A stretch of 53,922 nt of DNA from a virus (lineage: Duplodnaviria; Caudoviricetes). The stretch lies in the IMG/VR virus record IMGVR_UViG_3300010354_000116, positions 1-53,922 of that record; one strand, written 5' to 3'. Under the pieces are notes generated by a model. That model ran no database searches. It was not told the DNA's origin and saw only the letters and a list, made by a program, of their open reading frames with translations. Below, piece by piece: positions 1,520 to 50,960 of this stretch (positions are counted from its first letter, which is position 1; the number at the start of each line of letters is the position of its first letter). A program made the translations under genes and the position numbers.

Positions 1520-3052
1520 AAAAGCCGACCCGTTCAGCAGTCTTAGTATTAAGGACATACCCACAGTGCTCCCGTTGCTTACTTCAGCGGAGCAAGAACG
1601 GCTTTTGGCTGAGTTGGAGCACTTGGAGAAGCTCAAAGAGCGTAAAAAGCGCAGACGCGCTTCAATGATTTCGTTAAACAGATGTGGCCGACGTTTATCA
1701 GTGGTCGACACCATGCCATTATGGCCGATGCCTTCGAGCGGGTGGCTAAGGGGGAGTGCAAACGGCTGATAATCAACATGCCGCCGCGTCATACCAAGTC
1801 AGAATTTGCCTCTTACCTGCTTCCGGCGTGGTTTTTGGGTAAATTTCCGCATAAAAAGGTGATCCAGACTGCCCACACTGCCGAGTTGGCGGTGGGTTTT
1901 GGTCGAAAAGTGCGAAATTTGGTCGACACGGAGGCTTATCGGGACGTTTTTCCCGGTTTGGTGCTCTCTGCCGACTCAAAAGCAGCGGGTAGATGGAATA
2001 CGAGCAAGGGGGGAGACTACTTTGCGATAGGTGTGGGGGGTGCGGTGACCGGTAAAGGTGCCGACCTGCTCATTATTGACGACCCGCACTCCGAACAAGA
2101 GGCCACACTGGCCGATGTGAACCCCGAAATCTACGACAAGGTGTACGAGTGGTATACATCCGGTCCCCGGCAGCGTTTGCAGCCCGGAGGGTCCATCGTC
2201 GTCGTTATGACACGGTGGGGTCTGCGTGATCTTACGGCGCAAGTACTCAAGTCCAGTGCGCAACGTGGGGCCGACGAGTGGGAAGTGATCGAGTTCCCCG
2301 CTATTTTGCCGTCAGGCAATGCGCTGTGGCCGCAGTTCTGGTCGTTGGATGACCTCAAGGCACTGCGTGAAGAACTCCCCCCGTCAAAGTGGATGGCGCA
2401 GTACCAACAGCAACCCACTTCGGACACCGCCGCTATCGTCAAACGGGACTGGTGGAAACGTTGGGAGCCGGATGAACCCCCTGAGTGTGATTTTGTGCTG
2501 CAGGCGTGGGATACGGCGTTCGAGGCCAACAACCGCTCAGACTACTCTGCGTGCACCACGTGGGGAGTGTTCTTCAACGAGAACACCGATAACTACAACA
2601 TCATCCTGCTTAATGCCTACAAAGATCGTATGGAGTTTCCCACCCTCAAACGCGTGGTGATGGAGCAGTATGACGAGTACCAACCCGACAGTTTGATCGT
2701 GGAGAAAAAAGCCTCTGGTGCGCCGCTGATTTACGAGCTTAGGGCTATGGGAGTACCTGTACAGGAATACACCCCGGTGCGGGGCACCGTGCTCAACCCA
2801 AACAACAAGACGGTACGCCTGAACTCCGTTTCGGATATGTTTGCTTCTGGTGTAGTATGGGCTCCGCAGCGCCGCTGGGCCGATGAGGTCATTGACGAGG
2901 TAGCAAGTTTTCCTTCTGGCGAACACGATGACTACGTGGACTCCACTATTATGGCGCTGATGCGCTTTCGACAAGGCGGCTTCCTGCGTCTGCCAAGTGA
3001 TGAGAAGGAACAGCGTCGAGAATTCCGGTACCGCAAAGGTGGCTACTATTAA
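1509..3052 (+). CDS. terL: terminase large subunit; N-terminal ~46 codons are in a different frame (shift near 1644-1649)
   Basis: RLIINMPPRHTKS (Walker A region), LLIIDDP (Walker B), RNase H-like nuclease motifs AWDTAF...SDYSA and HDDYVDS. The intact frame in the ORF track is 1682-3052. Confidence 0.93.
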
Positions 3053-3063
3053 AGGGGTCAACA

Positions 3064-5493
3064 ATGGCAATTGAAAAGAGCTTGTACACGCTGCCGCAAG
3101 GGATCAGCGATGAGGGCATGGGAGCTGAGATCGAGATTGAGATCGGGCTGCCCGGAGCGCCGGAAATCACCATGCTGGAGGATGGCGGGGTGGAAATAAC
3201 CCTTGAGCCCTCCGAAGACGATGAGCTGGAAGCGGCACCGTTCGACGCCAACCTTGCCGAGTACATGGACGACGGGGACATGTCGACTCTTGCCAAAGAG
3301 CTGCTGGGGTTTGTACAGGCAGACATCGACAGCCGCAAAGACTGGGCCGACACATTCGTCAAAGGTCTGGAAGTGCTGGGCTTCAAGTACGAGGAGCGCA
3401 CCGACCCGTGGGAAGGCGCGTGTGGGGTCTACTCTACCGTGCTGGCCGAAGCTGTCATTCGCTTCCAAGCAGAAGCTATGTCCGAGACGTTCCCTGCTGC
3501 TGGCCCCGTCAAGACAAAGATCATTGGTGAGATCACCAAGCAGAAAGAAGACGCTGCCTTGCGAGTCAAGGTGGATATGAATTACGAGCTGACCGACGTG
3601 ATGACCGAGTACCGCCCTGAGCACGAGCGGATGCTGTACACACTGGGGCTGGCCGGGTCTGCGTTCAAGAAGGTGTATTTCGACCCCAATATAGGTAGGC
3701 AAGTAGCCATATTTGTCCCCCCAGAAGATGTGATCGTGCCTTACGGCGCATCTAACATCGAGAGCGCGGAGCGCGTTACGCACGTCATGCGAAAGACCAA
3801 GAACGATCTGGTCAAGCTGCAGGCAGCGGGGTTCTACCGTGAGGTCGACCTTGGCGAGCCGTCGCCGTTTCGCACCGACATTGAGGAGAAAAAAGCGGAA
3901 GAAGGTGGGTTCTCAATCACCGACGACGACCGCTACGCTCTGTACGAGATTCACGCCGACCTCATTATTGACGGTATAGATGAGGAAGAAGGGGATGACG
4001 CGCAGCAGATTGCCAAGCCATACGTCGTGACCGTTGAGCGAGGATCGAACACGATCCTGTCAGTTCGACGCAATTGGAACCCAGACGACCCTCTGATGCT
4101 CAAGCGGCAGCACTTCGTGCACTACGTGTACGTGCCGGGGTTCGGGTTCTACGGCTTGGGGCTGATCCACATTATCGGCGGCTACGCTAAGGCCGGTACT
4201 TCAATCATTCGACAGCTGGTCGACTCAGGCACGCTGTCTAATTTGCCCGCAGGGTTGAAAACTCGTGGGTTGCGAATCAAGGGCGACGATACGCCCCTTA
4301 CCCCCGGTGAGTTCCGTGATGTAGATATCCCGTCGGGCGCGTTGCGCGACAACATCATGCCGCTGCCGTACAAGGAGCCAAGCCAGACCCTGCTGGCGTT
4401 GTTGAATCGTATTACTGAAGAGGGTCGCCGTCTGGGAGCAATCTCGGACATGAACATCAGTGACATGAGTGCCAACGCGCCAGTAGGGACCACCCTCGCC
4501 CTGCTTGAACGTACTCTCAAGCCAATGGCGGCGGTGCAGTCCCGCGTCCACTATACGATGAAGCAGGAGTTCAAGCTGCTCAAGGCGTTGATCGCTGAGT
4601 ACGCCCCTGAAGACTACACATACCTGCCTGATCGTGGAGCCCCACGGGCCAAGCGTGAAGACTACGCGGTGGTTGAGGTTATCCCAGTATCTGACCCCAA
4701 CAGCAGCACAATGGCCCAGCGCGTGGTGCAGTACCAAGCCGTGCTGCAGATGGCGCAGCAAGCTCCGCAGATATACGACCTGCCGCAGTTGCATCGTCAG
4801 ATGATTGAGGTGCTGGGGGTAAAGAACGCGGACAAGCTCGTTCCGACCAAGGACGACATCAAGCCTGCCGATCCCGTCAGCGAGAACATGAATGCGCTGG
4901 TGGGCAAGCCGGTCAAAGCGTTTATCTACCAAGACCACGACGCTCACATTGCGACGCACCAGTCCTTCATGCAAGACCCGCAGATCATGGCGTTTATTGG
5001 GCAGAACCCTGCGGCGCAGCAGATCGTGGGGGCTTTGAATGCCCACATAGCGGAGCACATTGCGTTTGCTTACCGTCAACAGATAGAAAATGCGCTGGGA
5101 GCCCCATTGCCAGCCCCCAACGCCGAGCTGTCCGAGGAGATGGAGGTCAAGTTGGCGAGCCTGATTGCCGAGGCTGCACAACAAAACACGCAGCAGAAGC
5201 AGGCCGCTGCAGCGCAGCAAGCAGCACAGCAACAAGCCCAAGACCCGATCATCCAGATGCAGATGCAAGAGCTGCAGCTCAAAGCCGCCGAGCAACAACG
5301 CAAGGCGCAAAAAGATCAGGCCGATACCGCTATCGAGGCAGCTCGCCTACAGCTGGACGCAAGAAAGGCGCGAAGCACGGAGGTACTGGAGGCTACTCGT
5401 ATCGCTGCGATGACCGATCAGGCAAACGCCAAGCAGGATTTGGATGAGGCGCAGGCAATTATTGGTCTGGCAAAAATACGACTAGAGGAATAA
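3064..5493 (+). CDS. portal protein (P22-like) with Q/A-rich coiled-coil tail
   Basis: 809 aa directly after terL; GSAFKKVYFDP and GFGFYGLG motifs; long helical C-terminus. Confidence 0.85.
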   Translation: MAIEKSLYTLPQGISDEGMGAEIEIEIGLPGAPEITMLEDGGVEITLEPSEDDELEAAPFDANLAEYMDDGDMSTLAKELLGFVQADIDSRKDWADTFVKGLEVLGFKYEERTDPWEGACGVYSTVLAEAVIRFQAEAMSETFPAAGPVKTKIIGEITKQKEDAALRVKVDMNYELTDVMTEYRPEHERMLYTLGLAGSAFKKVYFDPNIGRQVAIFVPPEDVIVPYGASNIESAERVTHVMRKTKNDLVKLQAAGFYREVDLGEPSPFRTDIEEKKAEEGGFSITDDDRYALYEIHADLIIDGIDEEEGDDAQQIAKPYVVTVERGSNTILSVRRNWNPDDPLMLKRQHFVHYVYVPGFGFYGLGLIHIIGGYAKAGTSIIRQLVDSGTLSNLPAGLKTRGLRIKGDDTPLTPGEFRDVDIPSGALRDNIMPLPYKEPSQTLLALLNRITEEGRRLGAISDMNISDMSANAPVGTTLALLERTLKPMAAVQSRVHYTMKQEFKLLKALIAEYAPEDYTYLPDRGAPRAKREDYAVVEVIPVSDPNSSTMAQRVVQYQAVLQMAQQAPQIYDLPQLHRQMIEVLGVKNADKLVPTKDDIKPADPVSENMNALVGKPVKAFIYQDHDAHIATHQSFMQDPQIMAFIGQNPAAQQIVGALNAHIAEHIAFAYRQQIENALGAPLPAPNAELSEEMEVKLASLIAEAAQQNTQQKQAAAAQQAAQQQAQDPIIQMQMQELQLKAAEQQRKAQKDQADTAIEAARLQLDARKARSTEVLEATRIAAMTDQANAKQDLDEAQAIIGLAKIRLEE

Positions 5494-48033: not shown

Positions 48034-50331
48034 TCACTCACCACCGTAGCTTTTTGCCACTTTACCTTCGCAGTTCAAAGGAAGCGTAAGCGCCCATTGC
48101 GGACGTATCCGCATACAGTTCTCTACGTACTGCAGCCCTTCCTCGGCTTCGTTCTCCGGCACCACGCAGCCAATCGCGTCATGCACCGTCATCACTACCT
48201 TATACTTCTTAGCCACAAGCAACATGTGTTCACCGACTACAATACGCGCCAAGGCTTGGCAGATATTTTCTATATTCTTACCGCCGTATATCTTGTTGGG
48301 TATGGTCGCTCGTCCCTTCTTCATGTCGTAAACAAGCTCTGCGTGCCCCTCGTCGTTCTTAACTTTACGCAAGTTGGGGTACTGGATGTAAAGGCCGTTT
48401 GGCAACCGTATACCTGCCCCACCTTCTACTGATAGCACGCCGTCCAACCCAAGCGGTGCTGTTTTACTTTGCATGAGGGCGAGCAGCGCATCATTTGCTT
48501 GCTTCCATAATTGCGGGATGTTGGGGTAAGTAGCACGGTACACGTGGATAACCCGCTCGCATTCCTCTAACGGCATATCCACACCAAAGTTTTTAAGTTG
48601 TGCTTGGAACTTGGCCGCACCCATCCCATAGCCACAGTTATGGACTATAAGCGGCCCTGCATCCGTCGCAATTGTGTATCTGTTCCTCGGCCCTGCGTAA
48701 GCGATGTCGTAGGTCATCAAGTTCTGTTTGCATAATTTTGACCTTTCGTCTGTTCTTCGCGTTTTCAGAGCGAGTAGCGAACCTGAGATTGCCGGGTTCA
48801 TACCCCCGGTTGTTGTCCCCCTTAACATAGCCTGTGACGGTAAGTTTTCCGCTCCGGTAGCCAGTGCCCGGGAGCGCGTATTTTCGTCGGTTACCAGATA
48901 TTGCCACTCCGTCCACCGGGTCCCGCACAATACGCGGTGATCTGGAGTCAACCAGACGCCGCAACTCTTCCACGTTTCTTTGAAGCCTTTCCTCAGTAAT
49001 CCGCGATGGCATACCCATTCCTCCCCATCCCAAAGTTTGTCGTGTAGGGTCACCGTTTCAATCGGTTTCCACCCCGACTCGCATAGTGTGAGAGTTCCCT
49101 CGGCAATACAACCTAGTATGGTCGTCTTTCCCACAAAGCGTTCGCCTTTGCTAATCTCCTCCTGCGGCTTGCCGTAGATAGCTGAGGCCATGATTTTGTA
49201 CACGTCGTCACCACGAGCAAACGCGTCGACCAGATCATCCTGCTGCGCCAACCATGCCAACACACGCGCTTCAATCTGAGACAAGTCGCAGTCCACAAAC
49301 ATATACCCAGCAGGAGCACGGATGGCATGCTTGAGCGTAGACCCACGTGGTAGGTTCTGCATGTTTATGAGTTCATCCCCGCCCCAGCGACCGGTTCGCG
49401 CAGCGTAGTAACGCAGTGGTATCGGGAGTGCTCCCCGCTGAGCGATCTGTATGAATCGCTCCGTTCTTGTTTCTTCCAGCGTAGACTTAACACCCAACCG
49501 AGCAGCCGCCAGTGCTTGCACGTATTCGTTCTCATGCTCCAACAAGGCGCGGAACCCTTCGTCTGTCTTAGCCAGTGCATAAGTTTGCTTGCCAGTAGTC
49601 AGACTGGTTTTCATCGGCGGCTCTACTGCGTATTGCCGTAGTAGTTGTGCGAACTGCGGGTTACTGCGCAGCATCTTGGGGTCTTGCGTCACTTTTTGTG
49701 TGAGTTCTTCCCGTCTGGTGCGAACAGCCTGCAAGTGTTGCTGCAGCATCGGTATATCCAGCTCAAGCACAGGCTCTGTAAACATGCGGATAGTGAGGTC
49801 GATCAAGCTCAACTCAAACGCAGGGAAACGGTGCAGCAACCGTGCGAACAACTTGGAGGTCAGCACCACGTCGTTGCAGCAATATTCCCCGTATGCCTGT
49901 AGCTGTTGTGGGGTGAAGTCCAGTCGGCGTTTGCCCAACGCATCGAGCACCTCAGTGCCTTTGACGCCCAAGCCGTAGTGCTCGCTCAACGCAGCCAGTG
50001 ACCCACCCACTTCCGTTGCGTGTTTTGCACGTGCCATAGACAGGGTGTCTGCGATCTTGTGCGGGCGTATACCAAAACACCAAGACAGAATTGCCATATC
50101 AAACTTGGCATTGTGAGCCACTGCAATGCTGTCTTCCCAGTCAAATGTGCGTAGGAACGCAGCCGTCGCATCGTGCGTCCCGCTAAACCACACCGGGGTT
50201 TCCTTGTTGCGTTGCACCGCTACGCCTATCACTTCAAAGCGCGGGTCTCGTATGTACTCCTCGGTGGTCAGTTTGCTGAACCCAAACTCTTTGGAGTAGT
50301 ACGTCTCAAAGTCTACGTACAGAATGTTCAC
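48034..50331 (-). CDS. polA: DNA polymerase family A with 3'-5' exonuclease and intein
   Basis: DFETYY and AHNAKFD (exonuclease); TGRWGG, NMQNLPR, DLSQIEARV (motif A); R.VGKTTILG/CGYG (motif B, split); TVHDAI (motif C). Confidence 0.93.
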   Translation of the reverse strand: MNILYVDFETYYSKEFGFSKLTTEEYIRDPRFEVIGVAVQRNKETPVWFSGTHDATAAFLRTFDWEDSIAVAHNAKFDMAILSWCFGIRPHKIADTLSMARAKHATEVGGSLAALSEHYGLGVKGTEVLDALGKRRLDFTPQQLQAYGEYCCNDVVLTSKLFARLLHRFPAFELSLIDLTIRMFTEPVLELDIPMLQQHLQAVRTRREELTQKVTQDPKMLRSNPQFAQLLRQYAVEPPMKTSLTTGKQTYALAKTDEGFRALLEHENEYVQALAAARLGVKSTLEETRTERFIQIAQRGALPIPLRYYAARTGRWGGDELINMQNLPRGSTLKHAIRAPAGYMFVDCDLSQIEARVLAWLAQQDDLVDAFARGDDVYKIMASAIYGKPQEEISKGERFVGKTTILGCIAEGTLTLCESGWKPIETVTLHDKLWDGEEWVCHRGLLRKGFKETWKSCGVWLTPDHRVLCGTRWTEWQYLVTDENTRSRALATGAENLPSQAMLRGTTTGGMNPAISGSLLALKTRRTDERSKLCKQNLMTYDIAYAGPRNRYTIATDAGPLIVHNCGYGMGAAKFQAQLKNFGVDMPLEECERVIHVYRATYPNIPQLWKQANDALLALMQSKTAPLGLDGVLSVEGGAGIRLPNGLYIQYPNLRKVKNDEGHAELVYDMKKGRATIPNKIYGGKNIENICQALARIVVGEHMLLVAKKYKVVMTVHDAIGCVVPENEAEEGLQYVENCMRIRPQWALTLPLNCEGKVAKSYGGE
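48637..49110 (-). mobile_element. intein (158 aa) in PolA motif B
   Basis: Block A CIAEGT, block B LTPDHRV, block F TYDI...RYTI, block G IVHN, +1 Cys; removal restores KTTILG-CGYGMG. Confidence 0.92.
48638..49012 (-). CDS. nested out-of-frame HNH-type endonuclease, internally truncated, within the intein
   Basis: GGAGGA SD 6 nt before ATG 49012; 124 codons with GYRSGKLTV and DNNRGYEPGNLRFATRSENAKNRR; TAA overlaps the intein His-Asn codons. Confidence 0.7.
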   Translation of the reverse strand: MPSRITEERLQRNVEELRRLVDSRSPRIVRDPVDGVAISGNRRKYALPGTGYRSGKLTVTGYVKGDNNRGYEPGNLRFATRSENAKNRRKVKIMQTELDDLRHRLRRAEEQIHNCDGCRAAYSP

Positions 50332-50615
50332 GCATTGCCCCCTGTTGTGGAGGTACTATCATCACCAGTAGTGAGCACCTGAAGGACATGTTTGGTAAAC
50401 ACCGTAGCTTGTACGTTTGCCAGCGAAGCATTCAACTGCTTTCTTTCCTCGTCAGAGAAGAAGCCGCCCGAGCGGCTCGGGTCAAGCAGGATGTCTACCA
50501 AGGCACGCCACTTCGATATGTTTTTTGGTGTGCGCAATGAGGGAATACCCAGCCGGTCAAACTCCTCCGGGTGGCTCTCCATACGTTTCAAAAGTATCTC
50601 AACTCCCTTGTTCAT
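50328..50615 (-). CDS. hypothetical protein
   Basis: MNKGVEILLKRMESHPEEF; coupled to polA by GTGA overlap. Confidence 0.75.
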   Translation of the reverse strand: MNKGVEILLKRMESHPEEFDRLGIPSLRTPKNISKWRALVDILLDPSRSGGFFSDEERKQLNASLANVQATVFTKHVLQVLTTGDDSTSTTGGNA

Positions 50616-50895
50616 TCAGCAGCGCCTCCAGTACGTCAATGTTGTTCTCGTTAATCACGAGAGAAATACCTCCAGCTTCTTGGATAGCCGCAAGCTCTCT
50701 GAGTTGCAGGGGTGTCGGTTTGTTTGCGCCTGCCTTGCATTCAATCCCAAGAAAGCGTCCACGCACACAACACACCACATCAGGTACTCCAGAACGGCCA
50801 AGGCCGTATGTTGCAGGGAAGAAGTAATACACACTGTGCGCCTTGAGTAAGGCGACAACTTTATTTTTGACTTTGCGTTCGGGAGTAAGTGCCAT
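50599..50895 (-). CDS. VRR-NUC domain nuclease
   Basis: TPERKVK...SGVPD...FLGIECKAG..KPTPLQ...AGG. Confidence 0.88.
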   Translation of the reverse strand: MALTPERKVKNKVVALLKAHSVYYFFPATYGLGRSGVPDVVCCVRGRFLGIECKAGANKPTPLQLRELAAIQEAGGISLVINENNIDVLEALLNEQGS

Positions 50896-50932
50896 ACGTT
50901 GCCTTCCGTTAAAGTAATAAACCCACAGACAA

Positions 50933-50960
50933 ACTATAACATACAACTAGACAATGTAAA
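50933..50960 (-). promoter_or_regulatory. putative sigma70-type promoter
   Basis: TTTACA-16 nt-TATAGT with extended -10 TG, upstream of the VRR-NUC/polA unit. Confidence 0.6.

Follow-up and report, generated by a model that had tools for sequence, protein, structure and literature searches.

Homing endonucleases concealed in a second reading frame have been described in several kinds of insertion. In actinobacteriophage inteins, an endonuclease VII-like homing endonuclease lies 'in reading frame 3', an arrangement that its authors call unreported before (10.1101/2025.01.02.630785). A cyanobacterial dnaX intein holds a LAGLIDADG homing endonuclease in a +2 open reading frame (ORF), described in a preprint that cites Gorbalenya 1998 (10.64898/2026.09.14.751524), and the ShiLan insertion of mycobacteriophage methylase genes hides an HNH endonuclease encoded out of frame, whose mode of translation is left as a question (Genes 2025, PMC11855218). 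In the homing cycle, endonucleases decay after fixation (Gogarten and Hilario 2006, PMC1654191). Here we examine an intein in the family-A DNA polymerase (PolA) gene of a tailed phage, IMG/VR virus record IMGVR_UViG_3300010354_000116, from a freshwater-type metagenome; the whole record (53,922 bases, completeness rating 86%) is the window of this study. We read the locus, at a probability of about 0.82, as a dual-coding intein whose overlapping nuclease gene was gutted by a 375-bp deletion. The novelty, which a preliminary description made from the sequence alone could not confirm, is lowered by the 2025 and 2026 preprints; the interest lies in the family and in a natural polymorphism of full and deleted forms, and not in a new principle.

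The intein and its second reading frame

The features of the locus are as follows.

48034-50331, minus strand: gene of the family-A DNA polymerase precursor, 765 amino acids (aa), with a 3'-5' exonuclease domain (Pfam, PHROG)
48637-49110, minus strand: intein (CIAEGT...LTPDH...IVHN), 158 aa, between GKTTILG and CGYGMG of PolA
48817-49110, minus strand: N-terminal splicing region, intein residues 1-98 (Cys1, LWDGEEWV, block B LTPDH)
48742-48816, minus strand: linker, intein residues 99-123, the frame-0 reading of the nuclease-core leftover, predicted to be disordered
48637-48741, minus strand: C-terminal splicing region, intein residues 124-158 (YDIAYAGPRNRYTIATDAGPLIVHN)
48634-48636, minus strand: Cys+1 codon of the C-extein (from the sequence)
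48638-49012, minus strand: +2-frame ORF, 124 codons and TAA, nuclease-gene relic
49019-49024, minus strand: GGAGGA, 6 nt before the ATG at 49012, made by Gly-Glu-Glu codons (from the sequence)
49016-49018, minus strand: upstream in-frame ATG from Glu-Trp codons, the start position family-wide
48638-48640, minus strand: TAA stop of the +2 ORF, from the intein's terminal His-Asn codons, caT AAc (from the sequence)
48818-49018, minus strand: retained N-terminal nuclease part, a leader over the splicing domain and then G.R.G.LTV (profile A2)
48665-48817, minus strand: retained C-terminal nuclease part, DNNRGYEPGN...N..N.RR and a coiled-coil tail (profile A2, PHROG residues 73-106)
48817-48818, no strand: junction of the 375-bp deletion (alignment with the closest relative, locus L007, and contigs of sequencing runs X4, X5 and X6)

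The insert separates GKTTILG from CGYGMG, which we take to be polymerase motif B. Among the 80 closest IMG/VR PolA genes, 51 have no insert at this point and pass directly from GKTTILG to [A/S/C]GYGMG, with Ala in 24, Ser in 18 and Cys in 9 at the +1 position. Across 32 aligned inteins, C1, T55, H58, H157 and N158 are invariant, and in frame 0 both splicing regions are conserved but the linker region is not. The AF2 model of the window intein (pLDDT 86.9, pTM 0.78) is confident at about 97-98 for residues 1-90 and at 97-98 for residues 131-158, with 67 in block 91-100, less than 50 in residues 99-123 and 71 in block 121-130. When this model was compared with the PDB by Foldseek, the rows listed to rank 47 were all inteins or Hint-type domains, including one Vint domain and one bacterial intein-like domain (best E 1.9e-4); Npu DnaE aligned with TM scores of 0.58/0.65. 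Pfam at E<=1 gave no family for the insert, in line with the claim of the preliminary description that the intein's own frame lacks an endonuclease motif, and phmmer of the intein against PDB sequences returned chance matches only. Since these sequence searches gave nothing, it is by fold that the Hint domain is recognized. The insert is an intein of class 1 type with a Hint fold, and the CIAEGT...LTPDH...IVHN/C reading of the preliminary description is thus borne out by the ORF, the intein-free relatives, the invariant residues and the model. Its catalytic residues are intact and the polymerase is presumably essential, and the window intein should therefore still splice.

Within this intein, the +2 frame is open for 139 codons on the same strand, 124 of them counted from the ATG at 49012 (49012-48638); among the other open stretches listed for this strand within polA, the longest have 77 and 71 codons. 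The second frame had been reported with a GGAGGA in the G-E-E codons, an ATG 6 nt downstream, the motifs GYRSGKLTV and DNNRGYEPGNLRFATRSENAKNRR, and a stop made by caT AAc. All of these details hold in the window, and there is an additional in-frame ATG at 49018. Matches to nuclease profiles are limited to residues 73-106 of the ORF (phrog_374 at 4e-6 and phrog_3377 at 2e-5); that to phrog_374 covers 26 residues (73-98) of a 617-position profile. The window ORF is a fragment of a PHROG 374-type member.

A natural 375-bp deletion

Over 474 nt, the insert of the closest relative, L007, is 81% identical to that of the window, but it is interrupted centrally by 375 bases that the window lacks, equivalent to residues 66-190 of the 249-residue ORF of L007. 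Inside the deletion fall 18 of the 26 invariant columns of the family, including four Cys, an H-R-x-R-L-L-N-R helix, the Y-G-x-R-G-I motif and an Asp-Arg pair; what remains in the window are 65 N-terminal codons, 59 C-terminal codons and the start signals. A profile of 26 full-length relatives (A2, 243 positions) matches the window only at its positions 1-67 (4e-14) and 193-243 (1e-19), and a search with the same profile found no second copy of the nuclease gene in the window record. We defined the deletion by the DNA alignment with L007 together with this profile match; a MAFFT alignment with three long ORFs misplaced the window residues.

Sequencing runs, represented by assembled contigs and not by raw reads, place both alleles in nature. 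A 443-nt contig of run X3 spans the junction with 0 differences to the window. In runs X4, X5 and X6, from freshwater metagenomes of three other studies, contigs with 0-13 differences leave the window exactly at 48818, and they do so from both sides. One of them (X4 record 12, 632 nt) carries letters 1-231 on 48818-49048 and letters 603-632 on 48789-48818, and 371 letters separate the two parts. By eye, and in the nuclease frame, the diverging letters beside the junction continue into the Asp-Arg motif of the family. Because the X4-X6 contigs diverge at 48818, undeleted phages nearly identical to the window exist and the two alleles co-circulate; the deletion is a young polymorphism.

Two other mini-inteins were found, L086 (1311-1721, 137 aa) and L087 (2143-2574, 144 aa), with breakpoints unlike that of the window. 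A tree built from the 345 nt in common gives each of them another full-length intein as its sister, and the two arose by independent deletions. The +2 frame of L087 is open for 105 codons; that of L086 has a stop at the junction, and its ATG-making GTA is lost. The deletion in the window keeps the +2 register because survival of the polymerase needs a multiple of three, and no selection is needed to explain the 124-codon open frame, since a 3n deletion preserves both frames. Over 33 nuclease-only codons, the window branch has 4 synonymous and 3 non-synonymous changes and the L007 branch 7 and 3, counts too few to speak for decay or constraint on the relic.

The overlapping gene in related phages

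A tblastn search of GenBank phages with the window +2 ORF led to the polymerase genes of EBPR siphovirus 2, Salmonella Jerseyviruses and Pseudomonas phage MR14. In EBPR siphovirus 2, Salmonella phage Ent2 and Pseudomonas phage MR14, what matches is the +2 frame of the annotated polymerase coding sequence. The inserts of these three phages have 289-299 aa, and their +2 frame is open for 248-264 codons; frame 0 also stays open and reads unconserved. The reading frame was confirmed in these three records (L001-L003), and the other GenBank matches were judged by the names of the overlying features. With the L007 ORF as query, 415 GenBank records matched at E<=1e-8, in 140 of which the match spans 80% or more of the query, and among the matches listed with 78-90% coverage, 20 of 24 lie beneath a feature named only polymerase.

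The overlapping ORF is called uncharacterised or hypothetical in Salmonella phage LPSE1 (A0A1L7DRS1) and in the UPWr_S phages (GenBank matches H12, H21-H23 and H33); most of the other GenBank records annotate the polymerase alone. In three further matches (H57, H73 and H74), 37-69% of the nuclease is matched under polymerase features, in Caulobacter phage KcrB and in two phages of aphid symbionts, APSE-2 and APSE-3, which may be further polymerase inteins with remnants of the nuclease gene.

A profile scan of IMG/VR with the +2 ORF alignment gave 552 relatives, the best 80 of which were analyzed. The ORF is nested one frame away (+2) in an ORF of 442-1308 codons in 31 of the 80, nested with another offset in 3, and not nested in 46 (L022 and L031 among them); in none is it in frame with the host. 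One of the other-offset loci, L041, lies on a GC-rich contig, and its long host frame was judged spurious. All nested host genes that were read, except that of L026, encode PolA and carry a C...HN|C insert in motif B. Seen from the polymerase, the 80 closest PolA genes comprise 51 intein-free genes, 24 with a full intein, 2 with a mini-intein and 3 ended by a contig edge, and all 24 full-size inserts have 235-251 open codons in +2. An open second frame in homologues, which the preliminary description had proposed as a check, is thus found with the same offset in 31 IMG/VR relatives and three GenBank phages. We conclude that the dual coding is real, as judged from these frames, and neither a chance open frame nor a sequencing frameshift.

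In L026, the same intein with a 242-codon +2 ORF sits inside an SNF2-family helicase (host ORF 2027-4576, intein 2864-3733; Pfam SNF2-rel_dom 1.2e-13), an apparent change of host gene from polymerase to helicase. The pattern of presence and absence, together with this helicase jump, fits a mobile element.

Several related loci depart from the window arrangement. A second insertion point lies four codons upstream in the motif, where RFVGKT is followed by the intein and then by CILGLG or CQLSLI, with a +1 Cys in place of the second Thr (L025, L027, L028, L068, L113, L114, L118, L125, L129, L132, L134 and L151); the two insertion points suggest a shift of target site within motif B. In the PolA inteins L040 (2833-3636) and L042 (2878-3453), a related ORF uses the other frame, +1 with respect to the host, and in L042 the ATG stands just ahead of a G-K-Q-Y-G-W motif, past the N-terminal splicing region. 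Because these two use the +1 frame, both frame and extent of overlap are variable across the wider family. L029 (323-4246) is a 1308-codon PolA with an apparent second, upstream insert that weakly matches LAGLIDADG_3 (2.8e-6), in addition to its motif-B intein.

Selection and translation start

Nucleotide diversity per codon position was calculated for 28 aligned +2 ORFs; L015 (cut by the contig end), L023 and L034 (early stop) and L032 and L035 (<220 codons) were left out. In alignment columns 1-30, which overlap the N-terminal splicing region, the host third position is the most variable (0.59-0.63). In the windows from columns 41-241, the most variable position is instead the third of the +2 frame, which is the second position of the host codons (0.53-0.70 vs 0.17-0.52 at the second +2 position), and at the end of the alignment the pattern reverts to the host frame. 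Such a pattern is the mark of purifying selection that acts, in the core, on the +2 protein and, towards either end, on the intein. The first approximately 50 codons of the +2 ORF are unconserved as a protein sequence.

The start, in turn, is kept. In 48 of 54 distinct inteins, the Glu-Trp codons, or the position two codons after them, contain an ATG, which answers positively the question of ATG conservation raised by the preliminary description. The first ATG consists of the last base of the codon before Trp32 and the first two bases of the Trp codon. The second is created by a GTA codon for Val, used in 24 of 27 W-V-C inteins while nearby synonymous sites vary freely; of the three others, L030 has the first ATG, L097 uses GTG, and L086 is the decayed mini-intein. 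The Glu codon before Trp is GAA in 16/16 inteins without the second ATG vs 8/25 in the Val-Cys group (Fisher 9e-6, phylogeny ignored). Because the GTA and GAA preferences keep an ATG, the +2 start is held by the choice of synonymous sites. The first Glu is present in 26 of the 27 W-V-C inteins, and 24 of these encode it as GAG, yielding GAGGA. A stop lies 0-1 codon ahead of the start ATG in 10 of 37 loci listed, and no slippery heptamer is common to more than 3 of the 54 inteins at any of the first 100 codons; for lack of a conserved heptamer, internal initiation accounts for the +2 protein better than frameshifting. The other end of the ORF is less uniform: the His-Asn codons provide the stop in only 7 of 32 relatives and the rest end 22-67 nt earlier, which means that this stop does not characterize the family.

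Nature of the overlapping protein

When full-length, the +2 ORFs have four PHROGs named HNH or restriction endonuclease as strong matches, among them phrog_374 ('HNH endonuclease'), with E from 2.5e-31 to 9e-47 across approximately 200 residues; phrog_1035 'endonuclease VII' is reached at 4e-6 to 7e-5 only. The AF2 model of the L007 ORF (pLDDT 83.9) begins with a beta hairpin, goes on with a Cys4 zinc-ribbon-like unit, then helices and a pair of strands (185-189 and 201-205), and closes with a C-terminal helix of 40 residues (206-246). Foldseek with this model against BFVD gave 89 matches, several of them named HNH homing endonuclease, AP2 or DNA-binding. The best neighbour is an uncharacterised 247-aa protein of Salmonella phage LPSE1, and since this protein is present in BFVD, some annotators do call the ORF. 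In the ESM Atlas, the nearest named clusters are viral hypothetical proteins (0.87-0.90), and NUMOD and AP2 families lie below 0.85, as leads only. Matches of the +2 ORF, in its short or its full-length form, to Pfam, NCBIfam and PDB sequences amount to coiled-coil and zinc-ribbon noise. N200, N209 and N212 are invariant in the family; the Asp-Arg pair and the first strand are deleted in the window. The +2 family thus belongs to the phage protein group that PHROGs names 'HNH endonuclease' (phrog_374), and nuclease activity is something we infer, because its basis is the family names together with the genetic behaviour of the element.

Genomic context

On the plus strand, the window carries terminase, portal, tail and structural genes, and on the minus strand primase/helicase, helicase and polymerase genes. 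The polymerase ORF matches DNA_pol_A (1.6e-29) and DNA_pol_A_exo1 (3e-9) in Pfam and phrog_17 at 2e-89. A blastn search of GenBank phages in distant mode with the polA gene as query returned zero matches. Upstream of polA, a 115-aa ORF (50599-50946, minus strand) presumably resembles a small VRR-NUC type nuclease, judged by eye.

Discussion

We propose that the window derives from a family of dual-coding inteins of 277-299 aa, in which frame 0 would supply two Hint halves joined by an unconserved and probably disordered linker. The +2 frame would encode a separate protein of approximately 235-260 residues that starts at an ATG inside LWDG(E/V)EWV, runs through the linker and ends within or at the end of the C-terminal splicing region. 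One transcript might then give two products: ribosomes starting at polA would make the precursor, from which the intein is spliced out, and internal starts would yield the nuclease. The nuclease could cut the intein-free polA of co-infecting phages, so that repair copies the intein and the nuclease gene together. In the lineage of the window, the 375-bp deletion removed nuclease residues 66-190 and preserved both frames, leaving an allele at the decay stage of the homing cycle, with the splicing part intact and the nuclease gutted. If the window nuclease is dead, as it should be, no route but vertical inheritance, or copying with a nuclease acting in trans, would be left to the allele.

The preliminary description went further and saw in the locus a dual-coding element whose separately translated nuclease drives homing. 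As an architecture, this stands for the family; for this copy it falls with the loss of 375 bp. It is very unlikely that the 124-codon ORF is itself a working HNH-type nuclease driving homing of the intein: its Shine-Dalgarno sequence and ATG are intact, residues 73-106 match HNH-named PHROGs, and the 8 remaining invariant residues are kept, but 125 of approximately 249 codons are gone, among them those for the four Cys, the helix, Y-G-x-R-G-I and the first strand, the profile covers only 118 of 243 positions, and full-length alleles with near-identical flanks exist in other samples. The same description had warned that annotation at the protein level would call the locus a mini-intein and miss a nuclease; with the nuclease core gone, the window copy is in effect a mini-intein. 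An artefact, with compensating frameshifts or sequencing errors in an intein that has an ordinary in-frame nuclease, might be imagined from L022 (2815-3621), a Jerseyvirus-like contig of 40,793 nt in which the intein N-domain runs on directly in the frame of the nuclease while that of polA is interrupted, through either a frameshift in sequencing or a natural in-frame fusion at the cost of the polymerase. The chance of an artefact is nevertheless close to nil, as the same offset recurs with both frames open in 31 IMG/VR contigs and three GenBank phages, all 24 full inteins keep their 235-251 +2 codons, selection acts on the +2 core and on the frame-0 ends, and in none of the 80 relatives is the ORF in frame with its host, whereas an ordinary in-frame endonuclease with compensating frameshifts had been named as a refuting case. 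Programmed -1 frameshifting out of the polA frame, giving a +2 protein fused to the N-extein and the intein N-domain, would suit the identity of the +2 frame with the -1 frame and the unconserved first approximately 50 codons. Yet with at most 3 of 54 inteins sharing a slippery heptamer, an ATG kept by synonymous choice and a stop ahead of it in 10 of the 37 loci listed, we consider this route highly improbable.

Other observations weigh against our reading of a dual-coding intein with a gutted nuclease gene, and they concern what the +2 protein does and whether the relic is inert. The catalytic His of the HNH motif closes the first strand and is followed by an Asn and, in the helix, by a metal-binding His or Asn; where the first strand of the modelled beta-beta-alpha unit closes and this His is expected, the family has the invariant Asp-Arg pair (L007 residues 188-189) and not Asp/His-His. 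None of the 26 full-length members matches a Pfam HNH model at E<=1, Foldseek with the L007 model found 0 PDB matches at E<=0.001, and NCBIfam and PDB sequences gave nothing meaningful for the +2 ORF. The HNH-type label of the preliminary description therefore keeps the names of its PHROG and BFVD matches on its side and lacks a Pfam HNH match. These points favour a DNA-binding or accessory protein that is not a nuclease, in inteins spread by recombination or by a nuclease encoded elsewhere, as do the BFVD neighbours named AP2 or DNA-binding and the Atlas leads to NUMOD and AP2, which lie below 0.9. We regard this as unlikely in view of the strong matches to four HNH- or restriction-named PHROGs, the BFVD neighbours named HNH homing endonuclease, the tie to a mobile intein with free-standing relatives as in homing endonuclease genes, and the joint presence of intein and ORF in a second host gene, the SNF2 helicase of L026. 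On its own branch the relic has not accumulated amino-acid changes in excess (4/3 vs 7/3), and it retains GGAGGA, both ATGs and all 8 leftover invariant residues, and with its signals intact it may still be expressed or have some residual function. It could, for example, bind the DNA of the target or, by means of its long C-terminal helix, pair with full-length nuclease from co-infecting relatives, in either case protecting or favouring the deleted allele. The retained C-terminal helix and second strand, the lack of visible decay, the co-occurrence of deleted and full alleles across samples and the 105 open +2 codons of L087 would agree with such a role, but a 3n deletion alone keeps both frames open, and in L086 a stop interrupts the junction and the GTA is gone; we consider a residual or new role rather improbable. 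Also to be set against our reading are the evidence for the polymorphism, which comes from assembled contigs and includes a bridging X4 contig with 30 letters on one side, the confirmation of the frame in three GenBank records with the remainder judged by feature names, and splicing, which we infer.

A bolder combination of claims can be formulated. The relic, which keeps the second strand, the Asn-rich helix and the long coiled-coil helix at the C-terminus, would be translated and bind the polA target or the full-length nuclease, thereby shielding the deleted allele, which would explain the co-circulating alleles; the PolA intein family would be an obligately overlapping two-gene homing element with the nuclease start inside a conserved splicing motif; and the overlapping gene would be present, nearly always unannotated, in well over a hundred sequenced phages. 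That all of these hold together strikes us as a long shot.

The dual-coding family with its gutted member bears on several questions. Jerseyvirus-type phages of Salmonella and Escherichia, which are often sequenced as biocontrol candidates, hold an overlapping gene that usually goes uncalled; in record HG934469, for instance, the polymerase intein is annotated as 'encoding splicing domains' only. In this PolA family, intein and homing nuclease come as two overlapping genes rather than as one fused protein, which is relevant to the idea, discussed in the actinobacteriophage preprint (10.1101/2025.01.02.630785), that inteins originated 'splicing first, nuclease invades later'. The lineage of the window offers a test case for the homing cycle, with intein-free, full and three independently deleted alleles, and with full and deleted forms in near-identical phages from different freshwater samples. 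Finally, a start codon inside a conserved splicing motif is a mutable handle on the translation of the hidden gene, the question left by the ShiLan paper.

Comparison with known systems

The kind of element described here is already known from the texts cited above, and we found no paper devoted to the PolA motif-B family: within the openly searchable full-text literature, no paper names the overlapping gene of this intein, and in an article about five Jerseyviruses the passages on inteins and on homing endonucleases are silent on the overlap.

The actinobacteriophage inteins (10.1101/2025.01.02.630785) resemble the window family in their third-frame ORF on the same strand, their contiguous intein, the presence of DNA polymerase among the hosts and the free-standing relatives of the nuclease, for which an origin from a free-standing gene invading an intein is proposed. 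They differ in their phage hosts and probably in nuclease family, theirs being endonuclease VII-like and the one here phrog_374. Their second ORFs are also typically outside the splicing domain, whereas the ORF described here extends from intein residue 31-33 into the C-terminal splicing region. Compared by text, the two families are probably different. The five Mycobacterium-phage matches listed for the PolA +2 family are partial, and all stand free, outside any polymerase feature.

In the dnaX intein (10.64898/2026.09.14.751524), as here, the +2 frame is under purifying selection and the host frame relaxed in the overlap, and full, mini and intein-free alleles co-exist; its gene is bacterial and chromosomal, its nuclease a LAGLIDADG enzyme and its extein a different one. 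The ShiLan insertion (PMC11855218) shares the third-frame ORF in an insertion that is open in the host frame, and also a TAA in the last four bases (TAAC), as in the window. Unlike the window's clade, which has a Hint-fold intein and an ATG with a Shine-Dalgarno sequence, it has no splicing domain, stays in the host protein and uses a GTG start without such a sequence. In fractured genes with split inteins (Dassa et al. 2009, PMC2677866), the endonuclease is likewise translated apart from the splicing domain, but host gene and intein are there split in two with the endonuclease in between, whereas here they are contiguous and the frames overlap.

The window intein is also comparable to mini-inteins and solved splicing domains such as Npu DnaE, the Ssp DnaB mini-intein and Mtu RecA. 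It models as a Hint domain with a short disordered linker, and its nuclease was lost by deletion, as happened independently in two relatives. Because the lost nuclease was an overlapping gene and not a domain of the intein, the window retains a translatable remnant ORF with a start of its own.

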